Virus record (IMG/VR): IMGVR_UViG_2917587430_000001
Span: 25,228 to 89,227 of that record
Reading direction: 5' to 3' (one strand)
DNA from: a virus
DNA: 64,000 nucleotides
Shown here: positions 1,324 through 61,400 of the stretch, one piece after another
How positions within the stretch are numbered: the first letter of the stretch is position 1
How the letters are laid out: every line of letters starts with the position of its first letter
Position numbers and translations under genes: made by a program
Notes under the pieces: generated by a model
Database searches by the model: none
What the model was told of the DNA's origin: nothing
What the model saw: only the letters and a program-made list of their open reading frames with translations

Positions 1324-1959
1324 ATGATCCCTGCCAACCTCAACCTATTCATTCCGCAGGGCGCAGATTGCAGCCTGACTATCACTGTGCTTCAAGGAGA
1401 GCCAATGAAAGCTGCGACAGATGTCGCAGCAGATTCACTCTCAATTCCCCTTGTGAAACCTATAACGGCTGCTCTGCCCCTCGGAACTCGGTTGATGTTT
1501 GGGGAGGCGATCGCCGAGCTTTCTGCACCTGCACCAATCGGCACTAAAGCATTGCCTATTACTGGGCTGCTATTACCGATTTCCAGGAATGCGATCGGAC
1601 AAATCGTAGCTGATCTAACTGGCTGCTCTGCCCGTTCGCAAATCAAGCGGAAACCTGGTACTCCGGCGATCGCCATCTTTACTCCCTGGTTCGACCCAGA
1701 CCCGCTCACGGGGCTATTCAGCCTGTCTCTGACCAATCAACAAACCAGCGCCCTACCTGCCAACTTGCCTCCCGGCACATCGTTGACGGAAGAGGAGTTG
1801 CAGGAGCGCAGACCACAGCCCACAGACTATTTTTGGGACGTGGAATTGGTTTACCCCAATGCCAAAGTTGAACGCCCTATGAATGGGTTGGTGCTGGTTA
1901 GCGCTGAGGTGACAACGCCTCTGATACCCCCCGAACCGGAAGAGGCAATAGCTCCATGA
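1324..1959 (+). CDS. Putative virion structural protein (beta-sandwich-like)
   Basis: Motifs LFIPQGAD...ARSQIK...LSLTNQQT...YFWDVEL are typical of phage structural beta-sandwich proteins; operon context. Confidence 0.5.
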   Translation: MIPANLNLFIPQGADCSLTITVLQGEPMKAATDVAADSLSIPLVKPITAALPLGTRLMFGEAIAELSAPAPIGTKALPITGLLLPISRNAIGQIVADLTGCSARSQIKRKPGTPAIAIFTPWFDPDPLTGLFSLSLTNQQTSALPANLPPGTSLTEEELQERRPQPTDYFWDVELVYPNAKVERPMNGLVLVSAEVTTPLIPPEPEEAIAP

Positions 1960-2402
1960 CTTACTCAATTCGCCAAGCCACGACTGTAGTGGTGAAGCCT
2001 GTCACCGTGAATGCGGTGGTGAGTCAGCCGAGCCAAGTAACTGCGGTGAGGGTGAATGCAGGCTTGCCCGGTCGTTCTGGTTCGGGGGGTGGAAGCATCA
2101 AGATCCCATTTTCTTGGGGTGACGCTTCGCCAAAAGCGGTTTATGAGGTGGAAGGGAACGGCACCGTCTTCAGAGCTTCAATTGTGATTCAGACTCCATT
2201 TGACGGAGTTGGAGCATCGCTGAGATTGGGAGATGGCGAAGTGGGCGATCGCCTAATTCGAGCCGATCAAAACCTTCCGTCTCAAGCTGGAGAGTACGCC
2301 ACTAGCCCAGGCATCACTTATATGACATCAACCTTCATCCTGCTAGAAATCACGCCAGGAGAAGGCAATCAAGGTTCAGGATTTGTTCTTCTGGAGATTT
2401 AA
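1956..2402 (+). CDS. Hypothetical virion-associated protein
   Basis: ATGA overlap with the upstream gene; structural operon. Confidence 0.55.
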   Translation: MTYSIRQATTVVVKPVTVNAVVSQPSQVTAVRVNAGLPGRSGSGGGSIKIPFSWGDASPKAVYEVEGNGTVFRASIVIQTPFDGVGASLRLGDGEVGDRLIRADQNLPSQAGEYATSPGITYMTSTFILLEITPGEGNQGSGFVLLEI

Positions 2403-4284: not shown

Positions 4285-4745
4285 GTTATCACATTGTTCG
4301 AGTCCTGAATGGGCAAGTGATTGGCACCCTTTCTCCTGTCAGCGACCCTGAAGCCTACCAGTGGGATGAAAGTGAGGTAGTTGAAGTTTTTGACAATCAG
4401 GAAGCGTTTGATGTTCGGCTAGAGCAACTACGGCAAGCCGCAGAGCCAAAGCCTGAAGACTTGCCGAGGTGGGATGACTTCCAAAATCTCATGTTGATGA
4501 ACAGCAACTATCTAAGGATTGTTGGAGCCAGCTCAGCTACGCTTGTCTACAACTCCACACTGATTTGGATTTTAGGGGAGATCGGGAAGCATCCCGAACG
4601 ACTCCCACACTTGATAAACGTGTGGAACGCGATCGCTTACATCGCACGGCCGACCCCTGAAGAAATCGAATCGCTCAACAAGGTTTGTGTGGCGACAAAC
4701 ATGCGGTTCTGGTTGAACGAGCGCGGCTTTATGGTTGCCGTTTAG
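4281..4745 (+). CDS. Hypothetical protein, last gene of the virion operon
   Basis: ATG at 4281 overlaps the upstream stop (ATGA). Confidence 0.55.
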   Translation: MSYHIVRVLNGQVIGTLSPVSDPEAYQWDESEVVEVFDNQEAFDVRLEQLRQAAEPKPEDLPRWDDFQNLMLMNSNYLRIVGASSATLVYNSTLIWILGEIGKHPERLPHLINVWNAIAYIARPTPEEIESLNKVCVATNMRFWLNERGFMVAV

Positions 4746-6864
4746 CCTGCAACTGACGTTCAATTTTGTCGATCTTCCGCTCTAGGGCGTTTACCTTACG
4801 GCGACGTTCTAGCCGCTCCTGCCACTCCTGATATTGAGGGTCAGCTTCAGTGCCCAAATGCAAGCGCTTAACGGGTTTGCCATCCTTCTCAAAGATGGCT
4901 TTCTCAGCCCTGATGCGCTTGTAGATAAATGGTTTTTTCTCACCTGAAGCCAGTTTTTTGTAGGTGGTGTAGTTTTCCATCCAACAGCCCGTGGGAGCGA
5001 TCGCCCCTTCCCGCCGAACCTTATCCAACTCGGCTAGCAGATCCCGGCGCTGGTTCTCAAGTTTGGGATCAGAATTTTTTACTTTTGAATACCCCTCTTC
5101 TAGTGACTTTCTAAACTTGTCATTTTCAACCTTTAAGGCAAATAGAGATTCAGTTGTAGCCCTTGCGTGGAGCCGGAGCGAGCTTCGAGGATAGGCAAAG
5201 TGTAGCCCATCATAAACAATCTCAACTTCAAAAGTTGGGAGTATGCGCGAGACGATGACAACCTTTTCATACAGGTCATCATCTGCCACAACTTGAACCC
5301 AGTCCCCAGGCTCTAATGTGACTGTTAAAGACTCATCTTGAAATGGCTTGATGGGTTGAATGTAGGGATCTGGTTCGGGGGGTATCGTTTCTTCCTCAAA
5401 GGGTTCTCTGAGAGAAAGATAGCGAGCAAGGCTACAGCGAGGGGCTGGTTCGTGAATTAGTTTAATGCGGTCTGGGTGAACGCAATCCCAAGCTTTTACT
5501 CCATTTGAGATCTCTCGGTCAAAGTGGATGTGTTCAATTGGGATGCCCTCACGGTCATAACGGTTGCGCTCTCGCACAACGCCTTGAACAGTAATCCAAC
5601 AACTGAGCCCTTCAGCATCAAAACCTATAATCTCTGCCTCAATTGAGTCACCCGCTTTCAGTTCGGGGGGTATGGGTGCCACATATAGGGAATCACTCTG
5701 CTGGTCATCACCAGCCGCCGAGCTTGCAGCCGGTAGAGGTACTTTCTCGCCATCCCCTGCGAGATTTGGAGTTTCTCGGCGATCGCCTTCGTCGTCAGTC
5801 CTGGGTTGCTCTGAACCAATTTGAGAATGTTTGCGCCCGGAGGTGTTGTCTCTACGGGTTGTCGCTTGTGTCGTGGAACTCCCATTAGCCTGTATGCATG
5901 TGTGCTTGTCTACAACCTTAAGTAGCGCAGTAGCACCCCAATTGCCCTCAGCCACATCGCCGTCAAATGTGACTAGCACAGGAGTTTTGCGGTCTTTTCT
6001 GAAGCCTGTAACTCTGCCGTATCGGCTGCCAGGTCGGTGCGCCGGGGTGATGCGATCGCCTACTGCCAACTCCTCAACAGATACGGGAACGAACTGCAAA
6101 TCGGATTCAGGCTGGGGCTTTCGCTGGCTCAGCCAAAGCACTTTTCCCAGCCTTGCCTGCTGGTAGGTGCCCAGTTTTTCAAGCTCGATTCTGATCGTCT
6201 CTGAGATAGCGATCGCCTGCTCCTGCAACTGCTGAAGCCGTTGCCACGCCGCGTCGTCGGGGCAACAGAACTTTCCTTGCTGGCTGGTAGGCTGCTCATA
6301 GGTGCCCTGCTGAAGCCGCATCATCACAGCAGAGTGTTTGACGATGGGGTAGCGCTCGACCCTAGAGACACCCCACCAGCCCAGATAGTTCGGGACACCC
6401 CACGAGGGTGAATCCGGGTCTTCAGCCAGAATTACCGTCGGCGTGAGTGGGTTAGGAGCCTTCTTCAGTCCGCCCGCTTCTTTCAGCCGGGTTGAGTAGG
6501 CTCCGAGGCTGCGGAGATGTTTGGCGATCGCCTCCAGTGCTGCCTGAAACTCACCGTGCAACCGCACCGCCGTTGCCCATGACTGCTCCTCGGGCAGGCA
6601 GTAGACGAAACTGTGATCAGCGTTGAATTCTGGCTTGTTGTATGTGACTCGCTTGGGGTACATATCAACAGACACCCCCCGAACCAAGCGCACTGATTGC
6701 GGCGTGGCATAGCCGACAGGAAGACGTTCTATCACTGGAGCTTGGTAGGGGTCGAGGCGATCGCCAATCACCAGGCAGTGAGAGACAACTGGCTTAACCT
6801 TTCCTGGCTTGATGGGTAGGGCAAGCTGGTCGCCTTCGTAAGGAATTACTCTGCACGTCACCAT
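4729..6864 (-). CDS. Large mosaic hypothetical protein with KOW/SH3-like modules and a basic C-terminal domain
   Basis: Long ORF; likely start 6864 after GGAGGAG; KOW-like segments LAVGDRI... and LEPGDWVQV... Confidence 0.65.
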   Translation of the reverse strand: MVTCRVIPYEGDQLALPIKPGKVKPVVSHCLVIGDRLDPYQAPVIERLPVGYATPQSVRLVRGVSVDMYPKRVTYNKPEFNADHSFVYCLPEEQSWATAVRLHGEFQAALEAIAKHLRSLGAYSTRLKEAGGLKKAPNPLTPTVILAEDPDSPSWGVPNYLGWWGVSRVERYPIVKHSAVMMRLQQGTYEQPTSQQGKFCCPDDAAWQRLQQLQEQAIAISETIRIELEKLGTYQQARLGKVLWLSQRKPQPESDLQFVPVSVEELAVGDRITPAHRPGSRYGRVTGFRKDRKTPVLVTFDGDVAEGNWGATALLKVVDKHTCIQANGSSTTQATTRRDNTSGRKHSQIGSEQPRTDDEGDRRETPNLAGDGEKVPLPAASSAAGDDQQSDSLYVAPIPPELKAGDSIEAEIIGFDAEGLSCWITVQGVVRERNRYDREGIPIEHIHFDREISNGVKAWDCVHPDRIKLIHEPAPRCSLARYLSLREPFEEETIPPEPDPYIQPIKPFQDESLTVTLEPGDWVQVVADDDLYEKVVIVSRILPTFEVEIVYDGLHFAYPRSSLRLHARATTESLFALKVENDKFRKSLEEGYSKVKNSDPKLENQRRDLLAELDKVRREGAIAPTGCWMENYTTYKKLASGEKKPFIYKRIRAEKAIFEKDGKPVKRLHLGTEADPQYQEWQERLERRRKVNALERKIDKIERQLQAKRQP
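5658..5885 (-). CDS. Winged-HTH protein nested in an alternative frame
   Basis: ILKLVQSNPGLTTKAIAEKLQISQGMARKYLYRLQARRLV fits the wHTH pattern. Confidence 0.45.
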   Translation of the reverse strand: MGVPRHKRQPVETTPPGANILKLVQSNPGLTTKAIAEKLQISQGMARKYLYRLQARRLVMTSRVIPYMWHPYPPN

Positions 6865-6868
6865 AAAA

Positions 6869-7513
6869 TCACTCCTCCTTTGCCCGTCGCATGGTGAGGC
6901 TGATGCGTCCGGGAGACTGCATTTCAAGATCTGCGGGGCAGGTGTTTGGCAAGATTTCAGTGATGCCGTGATATGCCAACCGTGAATGACCACTCATCAC
7001 TAACAAGTCACCAGACCGCAGCTCAATGTCTTTGTAGGGCGGGTCACGGTGGGCCACATTGCCCAAGCGAAACATGCCACTGTCGCCCAGGCTGACGGTG
7101 ACAATCGGGCTACCTGCGTCGATTAGCGGCTGATCTTCGCTCTTGTCTTGATGTAGCCCCAAACTAGAGCCGAGAGGAAACATATTGACAATGCCCGTGT
7201 CAGGCGTGAACGGCAGGTATCGTTGCAGATTGGTGTCGATTAGCGCCTGCACCGCCATGAGGATAAACTCGCCAGGAACAGGCACTCGCGCTTCGTAGTA
7301 CTCGTAGGGTCGCCATTGAAGCCCGATGCAGGCGATCGGGTGCTTCATGGGCGTTCCGTTGAGCATCTTGGGTGTGTACCACCCTTTTCTGGTGCAGTGC
7401 CTCAGCAGAGTCAGCACGGCGTTTTGCTGGTCGATTGGCAGCCAATCTGGGACGTGCCACACGCCGGGAGCTATCTGCTCCTGTGAGCGGGGAATCAGGT
7501 CAAGCTGATTCAT
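6869..7513 (-). CDS. alkB: AlkB-family 2OG-Fe(II) dioxygenase
   Basis: HxD (LGLHQD), distal H (YHGI), terminal R (RISLTMR), PIVTVSLG and LRSGDLLVMSG motifs. Confidence 0.9.
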   Translation of the reverse strand: MNQLDLIPRSQEQIAPGVWHVPDWLPIDQQNAVLTLLRHCTRKGWYTPKMLNGTPMKHPIACIGLQWRPYEYYEARVPVPGEFILMAVQALIDTNLQRYLPFTPDTGIVNMFPLGSSLGLHQDKSEDQPLIDAGSPIVTVSLGDSGMFRLGNVAHRDPPYKDIELRSGDLLVMSGHSRLAYHGITEILPNTCPADLEMQSPGRISLTMRRAKEE

Positions 7514-8153
7514 GGCGATCGCCCCCTTCAAACAATTCTTCTAATTGCCGTCGCTGACGAAAACCTTGAAATTCAGCAATCATCGGATAGGCTTCTTCTA
7601 CACTGATGCCGATTCGCTCCATCAGAAACCAGCGGAAATAGGCATCGCTCTCGGCCGCTTCAGCGGTTTCAATCAACCCAATGGCGTGATTGAGTGCCTG
7701 TACTGTTTCCCACTGGCACTTTTCGCCATACCAAAACACGTTGATTAAAGCCTTGCGGGTTTTCAGTCCAAAAATGACTTCAATCCCTTCGATTAGGGGC
7801 GATCGCCCTTCTTTAAGAAACTCGCGCAAGTGAGCAGATGTCACGAGCGCTTCATTTTCTGCCTGCGCTAAGTGCTGCGAATAGCTAATACCAAAGCCTT
7901 TTGGCGGTTGCTGCTGAGCCGAAGATCTGTACATTTGAACAAATCCTTTGACAATTGCAGCTTCTCCTTCGGCATAACCGATAGCCTGAAATATTGCTTG
8001 CGCTCTAGCTCTAGCCTCAGTCAAAGAGAGCAGCCCATTTTGCTGATTAAGCTGCCAGTAGATTGCCGGTTGGTAATTGTCAGCCCTAAACCAAGCATTG
8101 GTGAATATGATATTCGGCTCAATGTCCGGCATCAGTGGAAGTGAGTCAGTCAT
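7500..8153 (-). CDS. Hypothetical phage protein
   Basis: Overlapping early-operon gene. Confidence 0.6.
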   Translation of the reverse strand: MTDSLPLMPDIEPNIIFTNAWFRADNYQPAIYWQLNQQNGLLSLTEARARAQAIFQAIGYAEGEAAIVKGFVQMYRSSAQQQPPKGFGISYSQHLAQAENEALVTSAHLREFLKEGRSPLIEGIEVIFGLKTRKALINVFWYGEKCQWETVQALNHAIGLIETAEAAESDAYFRWFLMERIGISVEEAYPMIAEFQGFRQRRQLEELFEGGDRHESA

Positions 8154-8422
8154 TGGCGATCGCCCCCTCTCACCAAAATCTCAGGGATTTCTGCCCAGCC
8201 AAGTATTTCAAAATCTCCGTCTAACTCAGTAAAGCAATCGCCACACCAGTTCCAACCCACAAGTTGCCACTTGTCGTCACCTGTATTCGCAAGATTGTTG
8301 AATCCAATCGTTGTGAAAATTTCTTCATCTTCCAGGCGATGCTCGCAGTCCTCGGTAACTTTGACTCGCAGGAGCAGGAGACTGCCATCTTTAGGGGCAT
8401 TGTGCGGATATTCCTTAACCAT
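8150..8422 (-). CDS. Hypothetical phage protein
   Basis: Overlapping operon; W-rich motif WQLVGWNW...LGWAEIP. Confidence 0.55.
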   Translation of the reverse strand: MVKEYPHNAPKDGSLLLLRVKVTEDCEHRLEDEEIFTTIGFNNLANTGDDKWQLVGWNWCGDCFTELDGDFEILGWAEIPEILVRGGDRQ

Positions 8423-8693
8423 TACGATCGCCTCCCTCTACATCTTTAGGGCGTATTTTGCTGGCTACTTCTAACGCATCTTGAAGAGATCGGGGCTGAG
8501 CTTCAAGAACCGCTGCAAGCTGCCTTCCTGCCATAGCTGCAAAACCTGCTTGCTCATCCGTTTGCCCATAAGTGACAATGTTGAGATTGTGTCCTTGCTC
8601 ATCTGGTTTGGGGAACCGAGCTATCAAAACCAATTCACCTGCCCCGTACTCTTCAGCAATTCTTTTTAGTGCTTCAACAGGTATTTTCTTCAC
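8415..8693 (-). CDS. Hypothetical phage protein
   Basis: Overlapping operon gene. Confidence 0.55.
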   Translation of the reverse strand: MKKIPVEALKRIAEEYGAGELVLIARFPKPDEQGHNLNIVTYGQTDEQAGFAAMAGRQLAAVLEAQPRSLQDALEVASKIRPKDVEGGDRNG

Positions 8694-11081: not shown

Positions 11082-11084
11082 TCG

Positions 11085-12944: not shown

Positions 12945-14024
12945 TTAGGAAGCGATCGCCTCCTGAACTTTGACTTCCTCCTTGCCCTGCATCTCTTTTG
13001 CGGTGGAGATGAACTCAGCCCGCATTTTGGGTGTGGGCTTTGTGGAGTAGGTGTTTAAGATTTTCTCAAGGCAGTGTTCGGCGTAGGACAGTTCTGAATC
13101 TTCACTGGGTGGCTCTAGCGGAAGTTCAGAAATCTGCTCGACCATTTCGATTCGCTTGCCATCATCCCAGCCCTGAGCTTCCAGGAACTTACCAATGGTG
13201 CGGTTGCGGGAGTTGGCTTTCTGGAAGTTTTTGAAGCGGGGCACGCCGCGTCTGCGTCCTCGTTTTGGCGAGGCAGTTTCAGTTTCTTCGGCTTGCAGTT
13301 CGGGGGGTGTCTCAACTTTGCCATTCGTAGCGATTGGCGCAGCGGTCTCTCCTAAGCCCATCAGCATCGCCTTCTGTTGGGCAATGATTTGCTGAGTCTG
13401 AGTTTGAACCCAATAATCAACCCAGGCGGCGATCGCCTCTTCTGTGGCTTTGTAGCTGCCTGTGTCGGGGTCGAAAGCAACGAGCTGCCCCAAGGATTGA
13501 ATTTGAGCTGCAATTTGTTCAAGCGGCTGGTGGCTGCGCTCTGCGTAGGGGGCTAGAGTTTTGAGAGTCGGGATGGTTAACGGTATTGCTGATTGAACTG
13601 TCTTAGACGTATTAGACGGAGCAGGGGCGATCGCCTGTTGGTCCTGAAGAGTTGCTGTTGCCATATTTACAAGTTCCAAACTTTTGATTTCTAGTTTAAG
13701 TGGATCTTGCAAAACTAGTTCAGGCAGGCGGGTAGCAGCGCTATAAATCAGGTCGTTTTCGCAGTAAAAGGCAATCGAGCTAGCGGCGCAAATATACCAG
13801 GCTTGCAGGCGCAAATCGACCAGGTTAGCTTCAATTACTGCCCTGAATTCAGCGGAGAAAATAACAATCAAACCCCGGTCTAACCCACTGAGAAATAGAG
13901 AGCAACCTCCCAAAACTTTAGGAAACTCAGCCTGATATCGGGCAACTCGAAAGGTGTCGAGTTCTCCCAGGTCGAGCTGGTCTAGCTCTGGAGTAAAGTT
14001 TGGTTCGGGGGGTGTGGGTTCCAT
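12945..14024 (-). CDS. Hypothetical protein (359 aa)
   Basis: Long ORF with backbone-like composition. Confidence 0.6.
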   Translation of the reverse strand: MEPTPPEPNFTPELDQLDLGELDTFRVARYQAEFPKVLGGCSLFLSGLDRGLIVIFSAEFRAVIEANLVDLRLQAWYICAASSIAFYCENDLIYSAATRLPELVLQDPLKLEIKSLELVNMATATLQDQQAIAPAPSNTSKTVQSAIPLTIPTLKTLAPYAERSHQPLEQIAAQIQSLGQLVAFDPDTGSYKATEEAIAAWVDYWVQTQTQQIIAQQKAMLMGLGETAAPIATNGKVETPPELQAEETETASPKRGRRRGVPRFKNFQKANSRNRTIGKFLEAQGWDDGKRIEMVEQISELPLEPPSEDSELSYAEHCLEKILNTYSTKPTPKMRAEFISTAKEMQGKEEVKVQEAIAS

Positions 14025-20548: not shown

Positions 20549-21163
20549 ATGAGCATTTTATTTCCCATTCATGAGACGTTTCAGCAGACTCTTCAGGGGG
20601 AAGGGTTTTGGGCTGGAACACCAGTTGATTTCATTCGGCTATCTGGCTGCCCTGTGTCATGCCACTTTTGCGATACAGGTTATGCCGATGGCGGCAAAGA
20701 TACCCCCCGAACCATGCGATCGCTCGACGAATTAATCGCTGAGCTAAAATCCCCGTTTGTGGTGATTTCTGGTGGTGAACCCTTCATCCATTCCAACCTG
20801 CCGGAGCTGGTCAAAGCCCTCGAGTTCAACGGTAAACGAGTGGCGATCGAAACCTCTGGAGCATTCTGGCAAGAGCTGCCCGAGTCAGTTTGGGTTACGG
20901 TTTCACCCAAGGAACACATCAGCCCTAAATATCCAGTTGATGAGCGCTGGTGGCGACGTGCCAACGAAATTAAGTTAGTCATTTCCAGTGGTCAGGAAGT
21001 GTGGTTCTACCGTCCCAAATTGGCTAAAACCACTTGCTCTATCTTCCTCCAGCCGGAGTGGGGCGATCGCGAGAAAACCTTGCCGCTGGTAATGGATTTG
21101 CTCCAGCGCTACACCAACTGTCGCCTCAGCCTACAACTTCACAAGTTTCTCGGAATTCAATAA
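20549..21163 (+). CDS. queE: 7-carboxy-7-deazaguanine synthase (radical SAM)
   Basis: ETFQQTLQGEG...FIRLSGCPVSCHFCDT (CxxxCxxC), ISGGEP, IETSG, TVSPK, LQPEW, SLQLHK. Confidence 0.93.
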   Translation: MSILFPIHETFQQTLQGEGFWAGTPVDFIRLSGCPVSCHFCDTGYADGGKDTPRTMRSLDELIAELKSPFVVISGGEPFIHSNLPELVKALEFNGKRVAIETSGAFWQELPESVWVTVSPKEHISPKYPVDERWWRRANEIKLVISSGQEVWFYRPKLAKTTCSIFLQPEWGDREKTLPLVMDLLQRYTNCRLSLQLHKFLGIQ

Positions 21164-21615
21164 TGAACCCCCAATTTCACTACCCAAAGCATCTACAGGG
21201 CACTGCTGCACCTTATCTGGAGGCGATCGCCTCAACCCAAGGCAGAGTACCAACCACGTTCCAATACCAGATCAGCACAGCCATTCGCCGCAAACACTGC
21301 AATCCGCCGATCTGGACTGACACTCACTTTCATAACTTCCAAATCACACTTCATCTCCAGGCAGTTCGGGGGGTGAGTGCGATGTATGGCATCGACATGA
21401 TTGAAGTTGAAATGCTGCTGAAGGCATGGGCAGAAGCATTGCCTGAAGTGGTCAATGAACACCCGCTCTGCATTGGCGGAACGACTGAGGATCTGTGCCT
21501 CTATTTTGCTCGAATCGAGCTAGACCCTCACATTCAACTGCTGCGCGTAGACGTGGCAGAAACCCCAGAACGTATTACCAGCCTTCCAATACTGCAAACG
21601 ACCTCTCTTAACTGA
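21163..21615 (+). CDS. Divergent QueD-like (T-fold) protein
   Basis: HCNP...HFHNFQIT, GIDM, TTEDL and VAETP parallel the QueD motifs HGHNY/IDF/PTxEN/ETP; translationally coupled to queE. Confidence 0.65.
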   Translation: MNPQFHYPKHLQGTAAPYLEAIASTQGRVPTTFQYQISTAIRRKHCNPPIWTDTHFHNFQITLHLQAVRGVSAMYGIDMIEVEMLLKAWAEALPEVVNEHPLCIGGTTEDLCLYFARIELDPHIQLLRVDVAETPERITSLPILQTTSLN

Positions 21616-21766: not shown

Positions 21767-22645
21767 GTGGCTAAGAAGTTTTTGCCTACAGTGGTCTGGG
21801 TGCCAATCGACCAGATCACACCCTATATCCACAACAACAAACAGCACCCACAGAGCCAGATTGATAAGCTGGCGAGCTGCATCATTGAGTATGGTTTTGA
21901 TGTGCCCATCGTCGTGGATGAGGATAACGTCATTCTCAAAGGGCACGGGCGACGGATGGCAGCGCTGAAGCTGGGGCTAACTGAAGTTCCGGTGATTAAG
22001 CGAACTGACCTTACGCCAGCGCAAAAGAAAGCCTGCCGCATTGCTGACAATAAGGTTGCAGAATCCCCTTGGGATTTTGAGGCGTTGAAGTTGGAGATGG
22101 CAGCGCTGGATGAAATGAACTTTGATCTGCAGATGACAGGCTTCAGTCTGGAGGAATGCAGCAGTCTGTTTGACTTGGGAGTGATAGACTTCCAGGGCAA
22201 ACAAATCTTTGGTGAGGATGGGCCACCAACACCCCCCGAACCAGACACATCGCATGAGCTAGATGAGGGGCGATCGCCACAGTTCAGCAGGCAAGACGCT
22301 CACGACGACGATGATCAGTCAGAGCTGGAGCGATCGGACGGCTCATTGCTGGAACTGGTAGAGATTGTGATCGCAGAGCCACGCCACCAGGTTCAACGAG
22401 GTCAGGTCTGGCAGCTTGGCAACCATGTCCTGGTAGTCGCCGATGTCCTCACTGGCTGGCAGTCCTGGAAAGATTACCTCTCCGGCGATGCCATCTTTGC
22501 CCCATATCCTGGTCCGTTCGTGCCACTAACCGTCAAGGGTGAGGAACGACGGCTGGTGATGGTGCAGCCAGACGAGTACATTGCTGGGCACATCCTTGAC
22601 CAATATGAGAACGTCAAGGGGGCTGGTAGTGTCCAGCGGGGTTAA
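21767..22645 (+). CDS. ParB/Srx N-terminal domain protein
   Basis: ITPYIHNNKQH...IDKLASCIIEYGFDVPIVVDEDNVILKGHGRRMAALKLG...RIADNK. Confidence 0.85.
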   Translation: MAKKFLPTVVWVPIDQITPYIHNNKQHPQSQIDKLASCIIEYGFDVPIVVDEDNVILKGHGRRMAALKLGLTEVPVIKRTDLTPAQKKACRIADNKVAESPWDFEALKLEMAALDEMNFDLQMTGFSLEECSSLFDLGVIDFQGKQIFGEDGPPTPPEPDTSHELDEGRSPQFSRQDAHDDDDQSELERSDGSLLELVEIVIAEPRHQVQRGQVWQLGNHVLVVADVLTGWQSWKDYLSGDAIFAPYPGPFVPLTVKGEERRLVMVQPDEYIAGHILDQYENVKGAGSVQRG

Positions 22646-38720: not shown

Positions 38721-39818
38721 CTAAAAGATTGAACCCTGCCAAACTTCCTCAGGGTCGTTCTTTCCCTTGCGTCTGCGCTTCTTGATGGGTTCAAATCGCC
38801 ACTGGTTCTCTGCGTCGTGTTCTGTCCCTGCCAGATATTCAGCCGCAGCGGGATTCTGATCGGCGGTCGCAGTCATGGAGTCCGAGGTAGCTTCACTGTC
38901 GCCATGAAGCAGTTCAGAATCTAGGAACGGCAGTGGCTTGACCAGCCAGGGAGCGTAGAGATAGCCGTTAACTAGGGCAGCTTTAATTACCGTGTCGTTG
39001 ATGTCCTGCCCATACAGCCTCAGTGAGTAGTTGGAGGCAGTCAGCAGCAAGCGACCGGTACCCAAGCATGGATCGCATACCGTCTCCAGTCGCGAATCGT
39101 GGCGACCCCTTGCGGGTATCTCTGCGAGATCGCCAGAGATGACATCATGCATCAACACCTGGGTCATCAGGATGCAGACGGGCATGGGAGTTGGGTAAAA
39201 CCCTGAGCGCTTGCCGAAATGGTTGATTGCCAGGATGTCTCCCAAATAGTCGTGAGGGTAGGCAGTCAGCAGATTCAGATTGAACATCTGATAGAGCCTC
39301 ATGCTGGCTCCGCTACATCCGCTCGGTTCATCGGGCAGGTCATAGCCTGGGTGACCAAACCCAAACAGTAGCCAGTCGAGGAAATAGTTCATGTATGTCC
39401 AGCTCGACCAACCTTGCCAACCCCCCGAACCGCAATTAGTAACGAGGTCTAAGCAGCGCTCCAAATGCTTGTGCCCTTGCTGGTCAAATAAATGGCGACT
39501 GTGTTCATCTGTTGCCCATTCGATTTTGGGAATCGGGCGATCGCCTAGTTTCTGAGTCTCCATCAACTCAACCCAGTAGACCCAGCGCTGCCACGTCAGT
39601 TCATCGGCTCGAAGTAGGTAGGGAAGGAGCCAGCCCCGTTCCAAGTTGCGCTGTAAGTTGGGGTCAAGCTTGTATTTCTGCCGCGCTTTAAGCTGCTCCC
39701 TAAGTTCTGCGCGAAACCATGACAATCTATCCCGTGACTCTTCCTGAGCCGGGATGCTATCGCTGTTCATTATTGAAGTTGCCTTAAATCTTGTTGCTTG
39801 ATAGGTGGCGATCGCCAT
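38721..39818 (-). CDS. N-6 DNA methylase-like protein (SAM-binding part only)
   Basis: GFYPTP...VCDPCLGTGRLL...LYGQDIN; no NPPY/F motif visible. Confidence 0.7.
   Translation of the reverse strand: MAIATYQATRFKATSIMNSDSIPAQEESRDRLSWFRAELREQLKARQKYKLDPNLQRNLERGWLLPYLLRADELTWQRWVYWVELMETQKLGDRPIPKIEWATDEHSRHLFDQQGHKHLERCLDLVTNCGSGGWQGWSSWTYMNYFLDWLLFGFGHPGYDLPDEPSGCSGASMRLYQMFNLNLLTAYPHDYLGDILAINHFGKRSGFYPTPMPVCILMTQVLMHDVISGDLAEIPARGRHDSRLETVCDPCLGTGRLLLTASNYSLRLYGQDINDTVIKAALVNGYLYAPWLVKPLPFLDSELLHGDSEATSDSMTATADQNPAAAEYLAGTEHDAENQWRFEPIKKRRRKGKNDPEEVWQGSIF
39105..39128 (-). repeat. 24-nt SDR5-like element inserted in a HIP1 site (in frame within the CDS)
   Basis: GCGAT[CTCGCAGAGATACCCGCAAGGGGT]CGC. 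Confidence 0.7.
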
Positions 39819-39921: not shown

Positions 39922-40677
39922 TTAAGCGGACATCCGAGCTTCAGCAGTCTCTACGGTGTCTGCCTTCTTGAAGCTAAATGCCAGGTTGTAGAGTTCAGTC
40001 CAGTTCAGTTCTCCAGCATCGTAGGCAGTCCGGATTTTGCTGGAAGCCTCATACAACTCATACGCCTTAGCAATCACTTTGGTGTAGTGAGCCGACTTGC
40101 CCACAGTTTCCCCGGCTGCTTTGGTGTCACCGTTGCAGCGGACTACTGCCTCATAAACTTCTCTGGCTTGAGCCAACTTCTCTGCCGGGTCAGTAATCCG
40201 AGGTGTTCCGGTTCGGGGGGTGCCACCTCTGCGAGTTTTGGCAGGTTGGGCAATGGCGATCGCGGTCAGCAATTGCTTGAAGGCTCCAAAATTCTCTAGC
40301 AGGTAAGTTGCTTCGGCACAGCTCCCTACATTGGCATTCTCATCCAGGTAGAGGATCAAGCGTTGTTCATAGGTCAAGTCAGACTTTTGCTCCTCAGCCT
40401 CCAGCTCCGGTTCGGGGGGTGCTACCTCTTCAACTTCGACTTCAACAGCAGCTTCAGAATCATCATCTGTAGCAATTGCCATTTGCTCAAAGTCTTCTTC
40501 ATCGTCAGATTCAACCTGATCTTCAACCTGCCCTTGAGCAAACAGAATCCAGTCAATTAACTGTGCTTTCGTGTCGCTTGGCTCAAACTCAATCTCCAGT
40601 CCAGCAGCAATGTTCTGGAGTTTGGGTTTGGTCATTTCACGGGTGGTCAGTTGGTCGCGAGTGTAGGTGGTAGTCAT
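39922..40677 (-). CDS. Hypothetical protein with N-terminal HeH/Rho-N-like domain, acidic linker and C-terminal HTH-like region
   Basis: YTRDQL...KPKLQNIA...DTKAQLIDWIL. Confidence 0.6.
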   Translation of the reverse strand: MTTTYTRDQLTTREMTKPKLQNIAAGLEIEFEPSDTKAQLIDWILFAQGQVEDQVESDDEEDFEQMAIATDDDSEAAVEVEVEEVAPPEPELEAEEQKSDLTYEQRLILYLDENANVGSCAEATYLLENFGAFKQLLTAIAIAQPAKTRRGGTPRTGTPRITDPAEKLAQAREVYEAVVRCNGDTKAAGETVGKSAHYTKVIAKAYELYEASSKIRTAYDAGELNWTELYNLAFSFKKADTVETAEARMSA

Positions 40678-47205: not shown

Positions 47206-47724
47206 TCAAGCGACAGCAAGGACATTGCGTGGGTTCTCTCCAGCGGCTAATCTCTCAAGCTGCTCATCTGAGAGATTTGAATAATCAATTTTGACGTTGA
47301 GCTTGGTTTCCTCCTTCTCACCTAGAGCAGTTTTTCCAATCTTTTGAAGTCGCTCTAGCGCCTTGGCTAACTCATCCAACTGTTTGGGAGATGGTAGATC
47401 ATTGCCTTTTGCCACTCCTTCAGTTGCTTCTTTAAGTTGCATGAAAACAAGATTCAAGCCGCCTTTCGCAAGTTCATAGCACTGGGCATCCCATGCAGCT
47501 AAGTCGCCCGCTAAAGCAGTCGATTTGTGTTCCTGGCGTTTATCTGAAACAGTTTGAACAAAACGCTCAGCCTCAACTTTCCAATGCTCTTTAGCTGCTT
47601 TTTCCCGCAGATATGAGGGCGAACAGGTATACTTCGCAGCCAATTGCTCTAAGGTTGGACGAGACTTCTCATCCGGAGCCTGGACGTATTCATCTTTGAT
47701 GACCTGCCAGTTGTGCTTCGCCAC
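47206..47724 (-). CDS. Terminase small subunit-like protein
   Basis: HNWQVIKDEYV...TLEQLAAKY...LREKAAKEHW HTH; C-terminal DYSNLSDEQLERLA. Confidence 0.65.
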   Translation of the reverse strand: MAKHNWQVIKDEYVQAPDEKSRPTLEQLAAKYTCSPSYLREKAAKEHWKVEAERFVQTVSDKRQEHKSTALAGDLAAWDAQCYELAKGGLNLVFMQLKEATEGVAKGNDLPSPKQLDELAKALERLQKIGKTALGEKEETKLNVKIDYSNLSDEQLERLAAGENPRNVLAVA

Positions 47725-54036: not shown

Positions 54037-54053
54037 GGCTGGGCAACACCAAA

Positions 54054-54974
54054 TCACTGATCATCAATCAAATCGCTACACAATTCACAAAACAAATCGA
54101 CATCATCTACTGAATTTATCCAACTAGGATATCTAGAATCATCAATCTCTTTTTCCCACTCGTGCAGAAAAGAAATGTATGGTTGTTCGCATTTAATACA
54201 ATAGTTAATTGCGTATTCTGCCAAACAGTTAAAGCAATGAGCAACCCTAAGATATTTTGCAGTTGGGTCAGGAACAGCAACTGCTTCTTCGTCACAAATT
54301 CCACACGTAAAGTATTGATAATCAATCCATTTTTCTTTTGGGTCTGAAATTGGTATTCCTTCTTTCTCCATGTGTTGGATATAGAACAAATAAGACATAG
54401 ACAGAGTTCGATAAGTACTTTGACTTTCAAGAGCATCAATCTCTCCTCCATCTTCAAAAAGCTCTTCTTTACGGGCTTCGTCAAGTTTATCTAGTTCAGT
54501 TTTAAGGCTCAAGCCTAATTCCTCAGCCACAAACGTATCTAGAAAAATAAAAGCAGTACCTAAAAATTCTTTAACTTCATTTGATTTGAGAGCAGCTTCT
54601 CTATGTTCAATGCAGTTTCTAGCTTTTCGCAAAGCATTTAGTGCCCCACCCAGCTTGTATTTTCCTGATTCTTGACGCTCCGCATACTGAAATAGTGGCA
54701 GCTTGACTTCTCTGACTAAAAGATCGATCGCTTCATCAGAGCCTACTGTACTACCACTTTTTCGGTTTCGATAGATCAATGACTCATCATGTTTAGCCAA
54801 CCTCGCTTTTAGAAAAAGTTCAACAGCGTGAAAAACATGCAGAATCACATATTTCCAATCCGTATTTCTTCTACCGTGAAGATGGTGCTCTACACCATGT
54901 ACAAGAGAATCCATTGCGTTCTCTTCAAGCTTTACGATTAATCTCTGCTGGCTTGAGGTCGTTTCGTTGGTCAT
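54054..54974 (-). CDS. Gene cassette: HEPN-like N-terminus plus zinc ribbons
   Basis: YVILHVFHAVELFLKARL...RNCIEH; C-terminal CxxC pairs. Confidence 0.65.
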   Translation of the reverse strand: MTNETTSSQQRLIVKLEENAMDSLVHGVEHHLHGRRNTDWKYVILHVFHAVELFLKARLAKHDESLIYRNRKSGSTVGSDEAIDLLVREVKLPLFQYAERQESGKYKLGGALNALRKARNCIEHREAALKSNEVKEFLGTAFIFLDTFVAEELGLSLKTELDKLDEARKEELFEDGGEIDALESQSTYRTLSMSYLFYIQHMEKEGIPISDPKEKWIDYQYFTCGICDEEAVAVPDPTAKYLRVAHCFNCLAEYAINYCIKCEQPYISFLHEWEKEIDDSRYPSWINSVDDVDLFCELCSDLIDDQ

Positions 54975-55085
54975 TTCTACTGTGTTACTGATTGATACGA
55001 CAAACTCGCGAGATAATACCTAGTTTTTCAATAACTAATGCAGAATAACTCTCCCAGTTCCGGTATTACCCAGCATTTATCCTTG

Positions 55086-55275
55086 ATGGCACAACATCCT
55101 TCCCCTTGCCTATTAGGTCAGGTACAGCAATCTATCCAACTCAAGCATTTCAGCTTAAAGACTGAGAAATCCTATATTGACTACATCCGCGATTTCATCC
55201 TGTTTCATTACAGCGGCACCTTGAAGGAATGAGGACAGATGGAACTCAAGCCTACTTGGAACTAGCTAGAAGGTT
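55086..55275 (+). pseudogene. intI: Integron integrase 5' remnant, frameshifted and truncated
   Basis: LLGQVQQSIQLKHFSLKTEKSYIDYIRDFILFH, then in a shifted frame RHLEGMRTDGTQAYLELA, matching the IntI N-terminal SAM-like domain. Confidence 0.8.
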
Positions 55276-55495
55276 TGAATACTTTCGAGGTTTAACATCG
55301 AGTTCATCTCATTAGGCAGTTGCTTCAACATACCAGCAGACGCAAATTGCATCAAATCCAGCAGGAGAGCGATCGCCCGTCAAAACGCTGCCTCAAAGAC
55401 CTCTAGTCTTTTGCATTCACTAACTTGAGGAAAGCCGCAGAATTCCCGTAATCCTTGGCGTGGGAACTCTCGGACGGAGTTTCTGAGCGTCTTCT

Positions 55496-58400
55496 GTGGC
55501 AACTACTGTTGGCGAATTAGTGCTGGAGTTGGGCTTAGACCCAACTATTTATAACGAAGGTCTGGAGAACGCGCACAAAGACGCGATCGCCATTGGTCAG
55601 GAGATAGAGGCAAGCTTACGGACATCTCTACCAGTCCTTACGCCCAAAGTTGATGACTCAGCTCTAACGAAACTGAATAAGCATTATGACCTTAAAGAAC
55701 GCCATGCCAAGCAGGTCAACCGCTACCTTTCTCAGAACCCGCTCAAAGTCAAAGTTGATTTCTCTCAACTGAACCAGCTTGAGCGCAAATTAGACAGGCT
55801 TGAGCGACGCAGAACCATTGCCTCAATTAGCACTCAAGCTAGCGGCAGTTCGGGGGGTGACTCTAACTCTCAACTTGCTGAGATGATCGGCAAGGCAGTT
55901 GCACGAAATCTTAGACCGGGTTTGGCAGGACGCGCAGCGGGGTTAGTGGGGAATGTTCTAGCAACTCCCGGCAGGGTAGCTGGCAGAACACTGGCTGGGG
56001 TTGCTGAAGGGTTGATGTTCGGCGTAACGCAGGAGGTCAGCCGCAACTTAGGCAAAGGGTTATCAAAAGCAATTGAGAATAGCCTTTCTAGTTCTGTAGG
56101 CAGTTCAGAGCTATTAGGGGAGAAGGTTGGAGGGGCGATCGCTCAATCAATGGGGCGATCGATGTCCAGCAAGTTTAAGGATTTACCTGAGAACTTAAAC
56201 AACCTGGTAGATGGATTAGAAGTTGACTCTAAGCTAAGGCGTAAGTTCAAGCAAGCGATTACTGAAATAGAAGATTTTCAGAAGCAGGCTGGAGAACTGC
56301 TAACCGAAACTTTGGGCGGACAACCAGCAATTCAACAAGAAGCGTTATATCAGCGTGGAACTCAATCTCGCGATCGCCGGCGCAAAACTCCTATAACTCA
56401 AGACCAGGCAGCAGAAGAGTGGCGCGAGTCGTTACGGACTAGGGATCGGGTACAGGCTTTAGCAGCCACCAGGACAACTAAAAACAGTCAACAACTCCAA
56501 CGCTTGAGGGGTGAATACGGCGGCACTCAGCGACAGTTTGCAGAACTGGAGAACCAGATTCAACAAGCTCAACAGTCTGGTGCTCCAGCCGAAGAAATCG
56601 AAGGGCTGACAACTCAGCTCAGGCGAACTGGAGCTAAGCTGCAAGGCTTGGCTCAAGCAATGCAGAACGTTATTAAGTACCAAGAAACTGTTGATAAGGC
56701 TGTAGTTGAAGCACAACAACGTGTCAGGGCAGGCTATCAACGAGTACAGACTCTAGCTCCAAAACCTCAGCCTAGAACTTATGTAGATTTAGTTCGTCAA
56801 GTCACCGGCAAAGATTTAGCACCAGACAAAATTCCTCAATTGAGGATTGCAGACGCTTCACTCAAAAAATCTGGAGCGCTCAGCCAATACGACCCCGCTC
56901 GAAATGCAATCGAAGTAACTCGTAAAACTTACGAAGCGATTGAGAATAACACCCTCACTCCTCAGCAAGTTGAGATGCTGAAGGAGGAGCTAGAACATGC
57001 TGTAGATTTCGACTTTGGCTCCTTCCGTGGGCTACAAGCTGCCAAACAGAGCCGAGTAGTGGGTAAACCTGTTGTTCCTACTGCTGAGGAGTTTGCTGCG
57101 ATCGCCCCTGGACTAGCTCCCTATGCTCCAGAGCGGAGGGCACTAGAGCTAAATGCCAAAGTCAAAGCCCGTAGAGGCATGACTGCCTATGAACAAGAGT
57201 CTAAGCAAGGACTGTTGCTCAATAATGTCCCAACTCTGGCTTCTAATAAGGAGGCGATCGCTAACCAAAGAACGCAGTTGCAGGCAAAATTGCAACAGAT
57301 TGGAAAAATTAGCGCTCTAACCGGAAACGACCTATCAAAAGCACTTGAGTCTTACAACGGTTTCTTCGATTCACTTCAGCAGAAAATAGAACGAACTGTT
57401 GAAGAAATGCTGTCAGATATTGATGGCTTAGATCAGTCTAAGGTCAACTCTATCGTCCAGAAGATAAAAGGCTATTGGGGAACCGTAGAGGGATTGAATC
57501 AGAAGGTCAATCAACTACTTCAGAAACAAATTGATGATGTTTCTGTTACCTCTAACTATGACGTTTGGACGGGCAAATTAGAGCGTTCTAAAAATTCAGG
57601 CTTATCCAATCAACCTCTAGGAACGGTTGATGATAAGTTTCTAGATCCAAATTTCGATCCGTTTGCGATAGATCGTCCCCCTGTTGCAATTCCCCTTCAG
57701 TTATCCATGCCAGAGGCAGAGCTTGTACCCGTACAGATTCAGCCTAAGCAGTCTCAAGCCATATCTAACACAGGTAAAGGCTTTACAAAACCAGCACAGA
57801 AGACAATTGATGCAACTAATCAAACCATTGCAAAAGTCACTCAAGCTGCTGCTCAAACTACTCAAAGTGCGATCGCTGAAGCCCAGAAGTTAGAAAATGC
57901 TTTCTCTGGCTTGTACAAGGGGTTGCAGGACGCAATCAAGAAGGGGGATGACCAGCTTGTAAAGGCTTACGGCAACGAGCTTAAAGATATGGCAGAGACT
58001 AGCCGCTCTGCCATCAACGCTTTAGTTGAACAAGCTAAACAGTCTGGTGAGGCGTTTGGATCAGAAGCCTTAGCCAAATTGGGAGGAGTGAAAGGTAGGC
58101 TAACTCAGCGCTTCAACTTAGCTCAACGAGGTACGGCAAAATACGAGCGGAAGAGGGCTGCTGAAGGAGAAGACTTAACGGCTCAATCCTTAGACCCAGA
58201 AGCCGCTAGGGGAGTTAACAAAACCCTTCAAACTCTAAAGCGCTCAATCCACAGATCAATTGATACGCTAAATTCTCTAACTGCCAGTCTCGCCAATGTT
58301 GAGCCACAAGAGAGCTTTGGAAAAACCCTTCAGAAAGCAGCGGTTTCGGAGCGTGGCAAAGACCTTTTAGTCAATACTGGCGGATTCATCGCATCTAACC

Positions 58401-61400
58401 TTGCCAGCCAGCAGGGACTGTTGCCAGAACTGGGAGGCGATTTGATTGGAGCACTTGTTACTCGACAAGTCGTTGAAGCTGGCATTGCTGGCAAGGATGC
58501 TTACAGCAAGCTTCAGAACGACGAAACCTTTAAAGCAGCAGATGCTCTGAAGAAGTTTTCGATGATCCTTACCGAGGTCACCGCAAAGCTGCAAAGTTCT
58601 GAATTTGGTGAGGAGCAGAACGGGGCGTTATTTGGTGACATTGCAGGGTTTACTGTCGGCAATTTGATTAAGGAGTTGCCTAAAACCATTGCTCCAGGTC
58701 TACCAGGAATGGATCTGCTAGGTCAGATACCCGGTAGAGGAGCACTGGCAGCTTCTCAGGCAGTTCCAATGCTCTCGAAGATGAGGGCGCAGATTACTCA
58801 GCAATTACAGTCCGGTCAATACAGTGGCGAAGAGTTGAAAGCTCAACGCCTAGACCTCAGCTACAAAGGGCTGAAACCCAATAAGCAGATGAATGATGCC
58901 GAGAGAGTCTTTCTTGAGCACATCATTGAGCTGTTGGACGATGCGATTGTCAAAGCAAGACAATTTGACCTTGCTTTTGGCATGTTAGACGCGCCTTCAA
59001 TGAGGCAGTTTGAAGAGAGCCTTGAGGGAGTAAACGAAGCGCTGGACTCAGACGGCACAAAGATTGTTGCTCAGGTTCAGAAAACTATTGCTGATTACGA
59101 AAGAACTGTTCAAGAGTTAGAGAAAAGCTACGCTGAGCGATTCCAAACCTCACAGGATGACCTTGATGAAACATTCCGCTATCGCGAAGCTTATGCCGAG
59201 TTACTTGGAGATGGACAAGACCCACAGGAGTTAGACCTGGCGATCGTTCCTCCCAGACCACCTGAGGGTGACGGTTTCTTTGGAGCACTGAGAGGAGATC
59301 TTGACGATATTGTTCAACGGCTCGGCGGCTTAAAGAACGCCGCAGGAGTGGCGTTCAAGGCAATCGTTGGGTTTGCGGCAGCTAGCATTGTTCTCCCATT
59401 TTTGACCGAGCTTGCGACCTCTGCTCTGGACGTAGCAACGGAGATGGAAGGGCTAGAGCGTCGGTTTAAGTTTGCCTATGGGTCGATGGCGGAGGGGCGT
59501 GCTGTCATAGCAGAGGTTAGAACCGATGCAAATGCGCTCGGAGCTGACCTGAGACAGGCATTGGAGGGGCGTGCTCAGTTGGCGATCGCTGCGAAGGGTA
59601 CGGCGGCACAAGGCGAAATCGCAGACCAAACAGCCAGAGCAATCACGCAGGCGGGTACTGTGTATGGACTGAACCCAGAGCGACAGCAAAATGCAAATCT
59701 GGCAGTCGCCCAGATGTTTCAAAAATCGGTGATCAGCGCAGAAGAACTGCGTGGGCAGCTCTCGGAGACGGGGCTAGGTAACCCTATTCAGACAATGGCG
59801 GACGCAGTGGGTGTTGACGTTGCTGAGTTGAACAAAATGATGGAAAGACGGGAATTGGTAATCGAAGAGGTATTTCCTAAATTTTCGGCACAACTTAACG
59901 CTGAAACTTCTGTTGCTATTCCTGACCTAGCATCGTCTTCTCAAGCTTCGATCAACCGCTTCAATAACTCAATGTTGAACGTGCAGGAGAGCATTGGTAA
60001 GCCTCTGCTACCTGTTCGCAATACAGGATTAGATGTTCTTGCAAGCAGTATGGATTTAGCGTCCAACTCAGCCGGAACATTGGTGAAGACATTTGGGGCG
60101 ATCGCACTGACCCCAGTTGTCAAAATGTTGTTTGATGTTGCTAAGTCAGCGATCGCCTCAGCTCAAGGAATGACACTGGCTGGAGTTGGAGTTAAAACGC
60201 TTGACTTCAGCATGAAATCGCTTGCTAGCACTGCAAAGTTTGTGAAAGGGGCTTTAGGAGCAGTTGCGCTTCCTGCTGCCATTTTCTTGGCGATCGATGT
60301 CGTTAGCTCTTTTGGCAAAGCCTTCAAGGACGCAGGTGGAGAGGTGCGAGAATTTGCAGAGCAAGGCGTAACCAGTTTGCAAAAATATGACGAAGCTCTA
60401 GCCAATCTACAAAATCGTTCTGGTAGAGGTTTAACACCCCCCGAACTACCACAGCCGACTGGAGTTCAAACCGAGTTTGGCGACACAGGTGAAACACTAA
60501 TGAGTGGACCGCTCGGTGCCTTTGAGCGATTTATTCAGAATGACTCGATTGGCAAGGCGATCGGAACATACATGCCTCTTAGAACGTATGGGCAAGTTCA
60601 GGCGGAGCAACAATCTATTGCCCAAAGCGACTTTTTGCTTAATACCAGCGATACTCGCGGACGACTTTTAGGGGAACTTCAGAGGTATGACCTAAACCCT
60701 GACGGAGAAGGGTTAATTGCTCAAGTTCGAGGCATTGATCAGCAGTTAGAGGAAACCCAGGGACAACGACGGGCACTGTTGCCGGGAGATATAGAAGGAC
60801 GTAGAGCGCTCGACAAGCAAATAGACGAGTTGTTGCAACAGCGTGAAGAACCTGGTCGGCTGTTGGCACAGTTGAAACAGCTAAATTTGAGCAAAATTGA
60901 GCAGCTTCAGCAGCAGATTCAGGCAGCTTCAGCAGCAGGTGACACCGAGTCTTTAAGCAGGCTTCAAAGCGAGTTAGACGCTACTACTGCGGCAGTAGAC
61001 AAGCTCAACGGCTTGATTGGCAAAACTCCTGATGTGCTGGGACGGTTGGCGCGTGGGTTTGCTGAAATTCAGGCTGAGCTGGAACAACTGAACATGGAGC
61101 TGGATCGCAGCGCTGCCTCTAATCGGAAAGCGATCGCCTCTGCCCAAATCTCGGGTGCAACGCCGGGAGAGCTTGAGTTTGCCCGGAGTTTGGCAGATCA
61201 AACCAATATGCGCGGAAGGATAGGCGCGAACCAGTCTGCAATCGATCGGATTCGCAGCACGGTAACAGGTAGTCAGGAAACAATGGATGCTTTGAGTTCT
61301 GTAGGAATCAACTCCATTGACCAGATTAATCCTGCTGACCTGACTGGAAGAATCCAAAACATGGAGGACTCCACTCAAAAGAGTCTGATTGAGCAGGCGA

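Follow-up and report, generated by a model that had tools for sequence, protein, structure and literature searches.

A short iterated word with lineage-specific spellings in the backbone genes of a temperate phage lineage of filamentous cyanobacteria

The subject of this study is an iterated DNA word in a 64,000-nucleotide stretch of a viral genome. The stretch, referred to as the window, covers bases 25228-89227 of IMG/VR virus record IMGVR_UViG_2917587430_000001 (G000; linear, 113,599 bp, CheckV 100%), and window coordinates are genome positions minus 25227. The word is the 11-mer GTTCGGGGGGT, and its 10-mer core is GTTCGGGGGG. G000 is a tailed phage and probably temperate. It encodes a large terminase (TerL), a GP7-type major capsid protein, a scaffold protein and tail proteins, including two of the tape-measure type. 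It further encodes two LexA homologues and a sigma factor resembling SigF, along with methyltransferases, TnpB, TIR and caspase proteins. A megablast comparison of the window DNA with phage and plasmid collections gave no match.

The record holds 147 sites of the highly iterated palindrome HIP1 (GCGATCGC), and on these grounds G000 infects HIP1-rich cyanobacteria. Relatives of its terminase are carried by prophages of Phormidium tenue, Iningainema and Trichocoleus. A Timaviella genome holds a relative of its small terminase, and a metagenome scan for further small-terminase relatives returned one locus. The two LexA genes lie outside the window, at genome positions 16275-16913 and 93301-93939. 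Both are full length, with DNA-binding and S24 peptidase domains, and both products are 50-57% identical to the chromosomal LexA of Leptolyngbyaceae. The phage has thus taken up the SOS repressor of a host, and this gene points to the order to which the host belongs.

Fifteen exact copies of GTTCGGGGGGT were found in the window and 20 in the whole record, while the core occurs 24 times in G000. Gene 1324-1959, which encodes a 211-aa protein of the head/tail module, contains a minus-strand copy at 1926..1936 that is read antisense as PPEP. A plus-strand copy at 2080..2090 has a GSGG reading in gene 1956-2402. The gene for a 754-aa protein at 4729-6993 (minus strand) carries copies at 5373..5383 (plus, antisense PPEP), 5661..5671 (plus, antisense PPEL) and 6674..6684 (minus, sense VRG). 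Gene 12945-14024 (minus strand) has plus-strand copies at 13298..13308 and 14003..14013, read antisense as PPEL and PPEP, respectively. Within a cluster of 7-deazaguanine genes, the QueE-like gene 20486-21163 has a minus-strand copy at 20702..20712 (antisense TPRT), and the ParB/DpdB-like gene 21767-22645 has one at 22231..22241 (antisense PPEP). Between these, the plus-strand copy at 21364..21374 lies within a PTPS/QueD-like open reading frame (ORF), 21034-21615. This ORF was omitted from the greedy gene set, so the copy was scored as intergenic in the orientation counts. The N6_Mtase-like gene 38721-39818 (minus strand) has a sense GSGG copy at 39420..39430 (minus), and gene 39922-40734 (minus strand) has plus-strand copies at 40211..40221 (antisense TPRT) and 40410..40420 (antisense PPEP). 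Finally, the second tape-measure gene, 55496-63433, carries a sense SSGG copy at 55848..55858 (plus), shared with its paralogue elsewhere in the genome beyond the window, and an antisense PPEL copy at 60436..60446 (minus).

A sequence-only reading of the window had listed at least 14 copies of the word. The repeated word is confirmed, and that list was one copy short because the minus-strand copy at 6674-6684 had been omitted. Its starts for the minus-strand copies at 1926, 20702, 22231, 39420 and 60436 were one base off. It had also named PPE, TPRT, GSGG and VRG as readings, correctly, and FGG can be added. In all of G000 the peptide readings are PPE[PL], which is the commonest, [TS]PRT, [GS]SGG, VRG and one FGG. 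All six frames are used, and many copies sit in proline- or glycine-rich linkers.

The word is far more frequent than composition or coding would produce. Dinucleotide-preserving shuffles of the window yielded a mean of 0.01 copies of the 11-mer (maximum 1), compared with the 15 seen. Synonymous codons were also shuffled within genes, which keeps both the protein and the codon usage. The 300 shuffles gave a mean of 0.73 copies of the core (maximum 4) versus 24 observed, and the analysis was repeated. The sequence-only reading had proposed a DNA-level signal laid over coding sequence, and the persistence of the excess when codons and amino acids are preserved agrees with that proposal. Only 2 core spellings in G000 are off by one base.

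The word is asymmetric and has weak flank preferences, namely T at -4, Y at -2, R at -1, T at +1 and R at +2. The preferred context is roughly YR-GTTCGGGGGG-W-R, commonly with T as the next base (GTTCGGGGGG(T)). The base 3' of the core is never G, and a run of seven G (G7) never follows GTTC. Relative to the gene, 11 copies are oriented with and 12 against. By strand, 15 are plus and 9 minus, interleaved along the record; the strand polarity that the sequence-only reading had thought worth looking for is absent, and there is no switch point. Spacing is irregular, with 10/23 gaps shorter than 1 kb. Full-text literature searches for the word in either orientation returned only primers and synthetic oligonucleotides, and a 14-mer scan of viral contigs gave, among the matches listed, single chance matches only.

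Two relatives proved informative. G004 is a 73.7-kb provirus within a 2.2-Mb metagenomic contig, and G408 is a complete genome of 89.5 kb. The genes that G000 shares with G004 or G408 make up 36% of its genome and hold 21/24 copies of the word (binomial p = 3e-7), as expected from the earlier claim of confinement to the backbone. HIP1 is less confined, with 76/147 sites in the shared genes. Window positions 22242-39419 and 40421-55847 contain no copies, nor do the TnpB, TIR and caspase regions of G000, which bears out the impression that cassette blocks are empty.

In two pairs of paralogous genes within G000, two synonymous changes create the word, CCT CCT versus CCC CCC in one and CGA GGA versus CGG GGG in the other; the first is the tape-measure copy at 60436..60446, where the paralogue has CCT CCT. 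G000 has large internal duplications with 78-91% nucleotide identity. Genome positions 6471-14468 match 80689-88662, 15969-16912 match 92994-93938, 72394-73032 match 96319-96954, and 54854-56456 match 110694-109097. The duplicated genes include the tape-measure genes (2653 and 2645 aa), the LexA homologues and the small-terminase-type genes, while the capsid gene and TerL are single. The duplications are either real segmental duplications or a chimeric assembly from two related phages.

G004 is the closest terminase relative of G000 (TerL 78%). It has 18 copies of GTTCGGGGGG, which is its commonest 10-mer, and one one-mismatch variant. Two further copies lie just outside the provirus call. In G004 every one of the six frames is again used, and 6 copies are oriented with the gene and 8 against it. 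The two phages have ~14 proteins in common, which are 27-78% identical, and their DNA can hardly be aligned. A single copy is orthologously placed in both, encoding [TS]PRTRAIA in a 160-aa tail-module protein. The remaining copies are at differing positions, even in opposite orientation inside orthologous genes, and often in low-complexity linkers. The HIP flavour of G000 is GGCGATCGCC, and that of G004 is CGATCG with looser flanks (AGCGATCG 107, GCGATCGC 55). This difference argues for different hosts, and suggests distinct host methylation or repair backgrounds.

Phages that are nearer to G000 in capsid and early genes use another spelling. In G408 the word GTTCTGTGGG(T) occurs 10 times, again flanked by YR...T, and GTTCTGGGGG occurs once. 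Stretches of other relatives were also sampled for words. Three GTTCTGTGGG and one GTTCTGGGGG were found in 20 kb of L170, three variant words in 16 kb of L153, and two GTTCTGGGGG in 12 kb of L175. Neither GTTCTGTGGG nor GTTCTGGGGG is above chance in G000 and G004. The spelling switches with lineage at orthologous sites, through a synonymous CGA/AGA change or a Pro/Thr replacement. In two genes TPRT is encoded by ACC CCC CGA ACC in G000, and Arg is AGA in G408. These are the G000 copies at 20702..20712, where the G408 orthologue has TPRT with AGA rather than CGA, and at 40211..40221, where the same change gives GTTCTGGGGG. One of the two G408 sites is thus exactly GTTCTGGGGG, and the other is one mismatch away. 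In the ParB-like gene, PPEP (CCC CCC GAA CC) at 22231..22241 corresponds to PTEP (CCC ACA GAA CC), a variant word, in G408, by a manual reading at a place where the alignment is gapped. Between G408 and L170, which have 82% nucleotide identity, the word itself is unchanged at 3/3 sites that could be aligned, in spite of divergent flanks. Conservation at orthologous positions, which the sequence-only reading had made a test of its signal, therefore holds at this range, with turnover or re-spelling over longer distances.

The sampled cyanobacterial chromosomes lack the word as an over-represented element. The 11-mer occurred 0-10 times per genome in 401 cyanobacterial genomes from across the phylum, which is not above the reversed control, and 0-3 times in three genomes with related prophages. 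The four-word family GTTCKGKGGG was counted in the order to which Phormidium tenue FACHB-886 belongs, which is also the likely order of the host. All 57 genomes were at control level, with 16-93 occurrences per 3-9 Mb, compared with ~220 per Mb in G000. Within this sample the word is a trait of the phage lineage and not of the host. We are highly confident that the feature is real and strongly non-random, and that it is a DNA-level, phage-lineage-specific and evolving one. We consider it probable that selection for a reader carried by the phage maintains it, and not mutational drive alone.

We looked for the reader among proteins shared by the carriers. All ORFs of at least 40 aa in six frames were compared for the near-complete carriers G000, G004 and G408. 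The three have in common structural proteins, the sigma factor, one protein of 160-205 aa (alignment A1) and nothing else. A1 is the only shared ORF that is missing from the non-carrier relatives G005, G409 and G410, including by hidden Markov model (HMM) search, and the family is present in every carrier with a sampled packaging region. G000 has two copies, a 172-aa protein encoded in the window at 47206..47724 (minus strand) and a second at genome positions 96358-96873, which adjoins TerL. In many contigs the A1 gene is immediately upstream of TerL and overlaps it, and this arrangement is found with two unrelated TerL families. The predicted structure has an N-terminal three-helix helix-turn-helix (HTH) domain followed by long helices. 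A1 was called a small terminase on the basis of its gene position and architecture. HMM searches of Pfam, PHROGs, NCBIfam and PDB gave nothing significant for it.

Because A1 is the sole carrier-specific shared protein, the packaging module is the leading candidate, and we tentatively propose the terminase or packaging module as the reader. The last alternative named by the sequence-only reading was a protein-binding or packaging motif, and this is the one we prefer, as a property of the phages and not of their host. Together with its weak flanks, the word was shown to be a recognition word of one temperate phage lineage of filamentous cyanobacteria. Synonymous and conservative substitutions have put it into backbone genes, where it stays exact; copies are gained and lost at differing places in each phage, and sister lineages re-spell the word as GTTCTGTGGG or GTTCTGGGGG. 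From this pattern we infer a trans-acting reader of about 10-13 bp of double-stranded DNA that accepts either orientation, travels with the phage and not with the host chromosome, and has drifted in specificity. The DNA-packaging module would read the word through its small terminase, the A1 HTH protein. The dispersed copies would then serve in self-recognition or in the initiation of packaging, setting phage DNA apart from host DNA, which has no such word. A concatemer headful begun at any copy, in either direction, holds a whole genome, which would leave orientation and position unconstrained, in line with what is seen. Dispersed sites would do no harm on concatemers and would give phage DNA an advantage over that of the host. 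As a whole, the proposal of a dispersed, orientation-free packaging or self-recognition word, read by the terminase or another virion or late-module factor and evolving in spelling between sisters, is a possibility that we put forward more guardedly still.

The word can be compared with known terminase recognition sites. Like pac and cosB sites, which are phage-specific and read by an HTH small terminase, the word has a candidate reader of small-terminase type. A known pac or cos site, however, occupies one locus, within terS or close to it, and frequently consists of several short repeats, whereas the word occurs as 20-24 dispersed single copies, none of them at terS.

Several observations weigh against packaging. 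The predicted recognition helix of A1 is nearly the same across phages with different spellings. L171, L172 and G466 are A1-positive and have no GTTCNNNGGG word at all. The terS gene and its surroundings, the usual location of pac, contain neither a copy nor a cluster. A Foldseek search with A1 gave no significant match, with 2AO9 as the one weak row. The literature was searched for terminase motifs that are dispersed or over-represented, and no earlier case came up; we know of no double-stranded DNA phage with dispersed packaging sites. Relatedness among the phages confounds the co-occurrence of A1 with the word, and the records of G005, G409 and G410 are incomplete. We treat A1 as a candidate reader.

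Silencing of the kind exerted by stoperators is an unlikely alternative. A prophage repressor would bind the word across the lytic backbone and block transcription in the lysogen, sparing the accessory and defence cassettes that are expressed. The stoperators of cluster A mycobacteriophages are asymmetric 13-bp sites, present at 20-30 per genome, with a subcluster-specific consensus (PMC6550527; PMC9283540). They are oriented with transcription and bound by the immunity repressor (PMC6550527). The likeness is considerable, as the word is also phage-only and asymmetric at ~10-13 bp, with tens of dispersed copies and a consensus that co-evolves with the sub-lineage. The density is comparable, with 24 copies in ~41 kb of backbone, and the spellings are lineage-specific. 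Placement of 21/24 copies in the backbone, with empty TIR, caspase and TnpB cassettes, is also what silencing of this type would produce. Orientation speaks against it, since stoperators follow transcription while the word is split almost evenly, with the gene in 11 cases and against it in 12 in G000, and in 6 and 8 cases, respectively, in G004. Stoperators are mostly between genes or at gene ends, whereas the word lies inside genes, in all frames and at random orientation. In addition, no repressor common to the carriers was found, with the limit that the DNA compared for G004 does not extend to its lysogeny module. LexA-type genes occur only in G000 and L170 among the phages compared, and both G000 copies are of the ordinary host type. 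The word does contain a sequence resembling a LexA half-site, RGTTCK. We rejected LexA as its reader because the upstream flank fails to complete the cyanobacterial LexA box consensus, and because the phage LexA is host-type.

Mutational drive without function is likewise improbable in our view. Here a lineage-specific mutation or repair bias, or gene conversion, makes the exact word from near-cognates. A comparable repair drive has been proposed for HIP1, and a phage saturated with host-type HIP1 is evidently one on which such drives act. The few one-mismatch forms beside 24 and 18 exact copies, the two coordinated synonymous changes between paralogues and the accumulation of copies in tolerant linker segments would all follow. 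Drive is opposed by the carriers' lack of any common nuclease, methyltransferase or repair gene. A drive by host enzymes is disfavoured because host chromosomes would also gain the word, and they are without it. In G408, moreover, one-mismatch forms are as frequent as exact ones (11 versus 10). Like HIP1, the word is an exact short sequence achieved through codon choice. HIP1 is palindromic, host-wide and extends into accessory regions, whereas the word is asymmetric, phage-only and confined to the backbone. HIP1 and other highly iterated palindromes of cyanobacteria were reportedly treated by Elhai in 2015. The word GTTCGGGGGG also differs from the iterated phage words AGTACT and GTCCGAAA and from a 14-bp palindrome.

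We give somewhat less credence to the word as the target of site-specific DNA modification or nicking, for example by a DpdA/DpdB-type 7-deazaguanine system acting on the G run. The window does encode such a cluster at 20486-24754, with a QueE-like radical SAM protein, a weak PTPS/QueD-like protein, a ParB/DpdB-like protein and a DpdA-like protein (phrog_887, E 3e-22); Pfam TGT itself had no match there. The QueE-, PTPS-, ParB/DpdB- and DpdA-like genes lie at 20486-23567. G408 has 7-deazaguanine genes at 61-85% identity, and the word is G-rich. Bacterial DpdA requires a ParB-like DpdB (PMC10164549). However, G004 shares the word, and no DpdA, DpdB, QueE or methyltransferase was detected in its 74 kb. 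The DpdA proteins of G000 and G408 are 85% identical despite the different spellings, and both points count against DpdA/DpdB as the reader. Every phage DpdA target reported to date is 2-3 nt long, GA being one (PMC10484667; PMC7544227). GGC is a further target, alongside GA. Finally, being a target would by itself leave the accumulation of copies unexplained.

It is very unlikely that the phage merely shares a word of the host chromosome, be it an uptake sequence, a Chi site, a FtsK-orienting polar sequence (KOPS) or a second HIP. The first three were comparisons made by the sequence-only reading. The length, asymmetry and embedding in coding sequence do resemble the DNA uptake sequences (DUS) of Neisseriaceae and the uptake signal sequences (USS) of Pasteurellaceae. 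Those are also 10-12 nt, non-palindromic, present in both orientations and in many coding frames, divided into lineage dialects, and serve as a tag of own DNA. DUS and USS fill the host chromosome, where they number in the hundreds to thousands, and the cell's competence machinery reads them. In contrast, the word is missing from the sampled host chromosomes and restricted to phage backbone genes, and the six-frame comparison of carriers showed no shared competence gene. As a G-rich asymmetric oligomer, the word also resembles Chi and KOPS or SpoIIIE recognition sequences (SRS), which are read on DNA by a motor enzyme. Unlike them, it is not host-wide, not 5-8 nt long and not polarised by replication. 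Host HIP1 is indeed present in the phage. Against these likenesses, the 11-mer and the four-word family are at control level in the sampled genomes, compared with ~220 per Mb in G000, there is no strand polarity, and two carriers differ in HIP flavour. Uptake sequences, Chi, KOPS and a second HIP were removed as explanations because all 458 sampled genomes are at control level. The claim that the word is distinct from HIP1 holds, as it is non-palindromic, lacking in the host and differently distributed.

A coding or codon-usage artefact, in which recurrent peptides such as PPEP linkers are written in favoured codons, can be dismissed. Such an origin would fit the predominance of PPE[PL] among the readings and the frequent placement of copies in proline/glycine-rich linkers. 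Yet the word uses six frames and both strands and stands at 24 versus 0.7 in shuffles. The word CAAGCTCAA of G408 (KLN), which is truly codon-level, behaves differently, with one frame in 11/15 and the sense strand in 12/15 copies. CAAGCTCAA was accordingly rejected as a comparable word.

Other readers were considered. The word was rejected as a promoter since no partner element occurs at promoter spacing. A primase-type word finds no support in that G000 and G004 share no replication gene and the spacing is irregular. The sigma factor was rejected because its promoter element is distinct. The likely late promoter of the SigF-like sigma factor, (TG)TGGGAACTC, is separate, intergenic and co-oriented, and is found in both dialects and in non-carriers. 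Late-promoter-like (TG)TGGGAACTCC sites occur in G004 (L145-L148) at 7986, 8859, 34880, 36708 and 45462, directly after terminator hairpins. They occur in L171 at 295, 4013, 4137, 4674 and 7666, 36-114 bp before start codons. Others are at 31051 in G408 and just upstream of both tape-measure genes in G000 (window about 55460). At some sites a second conserved box, GCGGGATGCC, lies about 25 nt downstream. The (TG)TGGGAACTCC element is probably read by the phage SigF-like sigma factor.

Relatives without the word have iterated elements of their own. In G409 (L162-L164) a TGAAAAATTTTTCA-type palindrome has 14 full copies, and in G410 (L165-L168) CCCTATGGAAAATTTTCCATAGGG has 8; both are mostly intergenic. 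G466 (L206-L210) has about 15 copies of the palindrome AATCAATTGATT and five of the asymmetric GTATCTCGAAGAG. The palindromes of G409, G410 and G466 were rejected as equivalents of the word and represent a different element, mostly intergenic in the case of G409 and G410.

Some further features of the relatives were recorded. The G004 prophage adjoins a comM-like Mg-chelatase gene (L145 1738-3144). Beyond the provirus call (L173 1-5000) are the two outlying word copies, an Mrr-type nuclease gene and transposase genes, and the IMG/VR boundary is probably too short on the side opposite the comM-like gene. TnpB (Cas12f-like) is encoded both in G000, at window 27724-29589 (minus strand), and in G004, at L148 11435-12652 (minus strand), with no mutual BLAST similarity. 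An intein interrupts the TerL of L171, and a GIY-YIG gene lies between the sigma and TerL genes of G004.

Iterated words such as USS/DUS, Chi, KOPS, HIP1 and stoperators have each pointed to a machine that reads DNA. An exact word that is found only in the backbone, is absent from the sampled hosts and is switched in spelling at orthologous sites has the footprint of a co-evolving reader. The candidate readers are few. Should the terminase prove to be the reader, we know of no earlier case of dispersed packaging or self-recognition sites in a double-stranded DNA phage. The word and its dialects offer a marker that could separate prophage backbone from cargo and host DNA, and sort uncultured cyanophage contigs into lineages. 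If the word is indeed read in packaging, it would do for a virus what uptake sequences do for bacteria, and phage and host DNA would be told apart without a single pac site.

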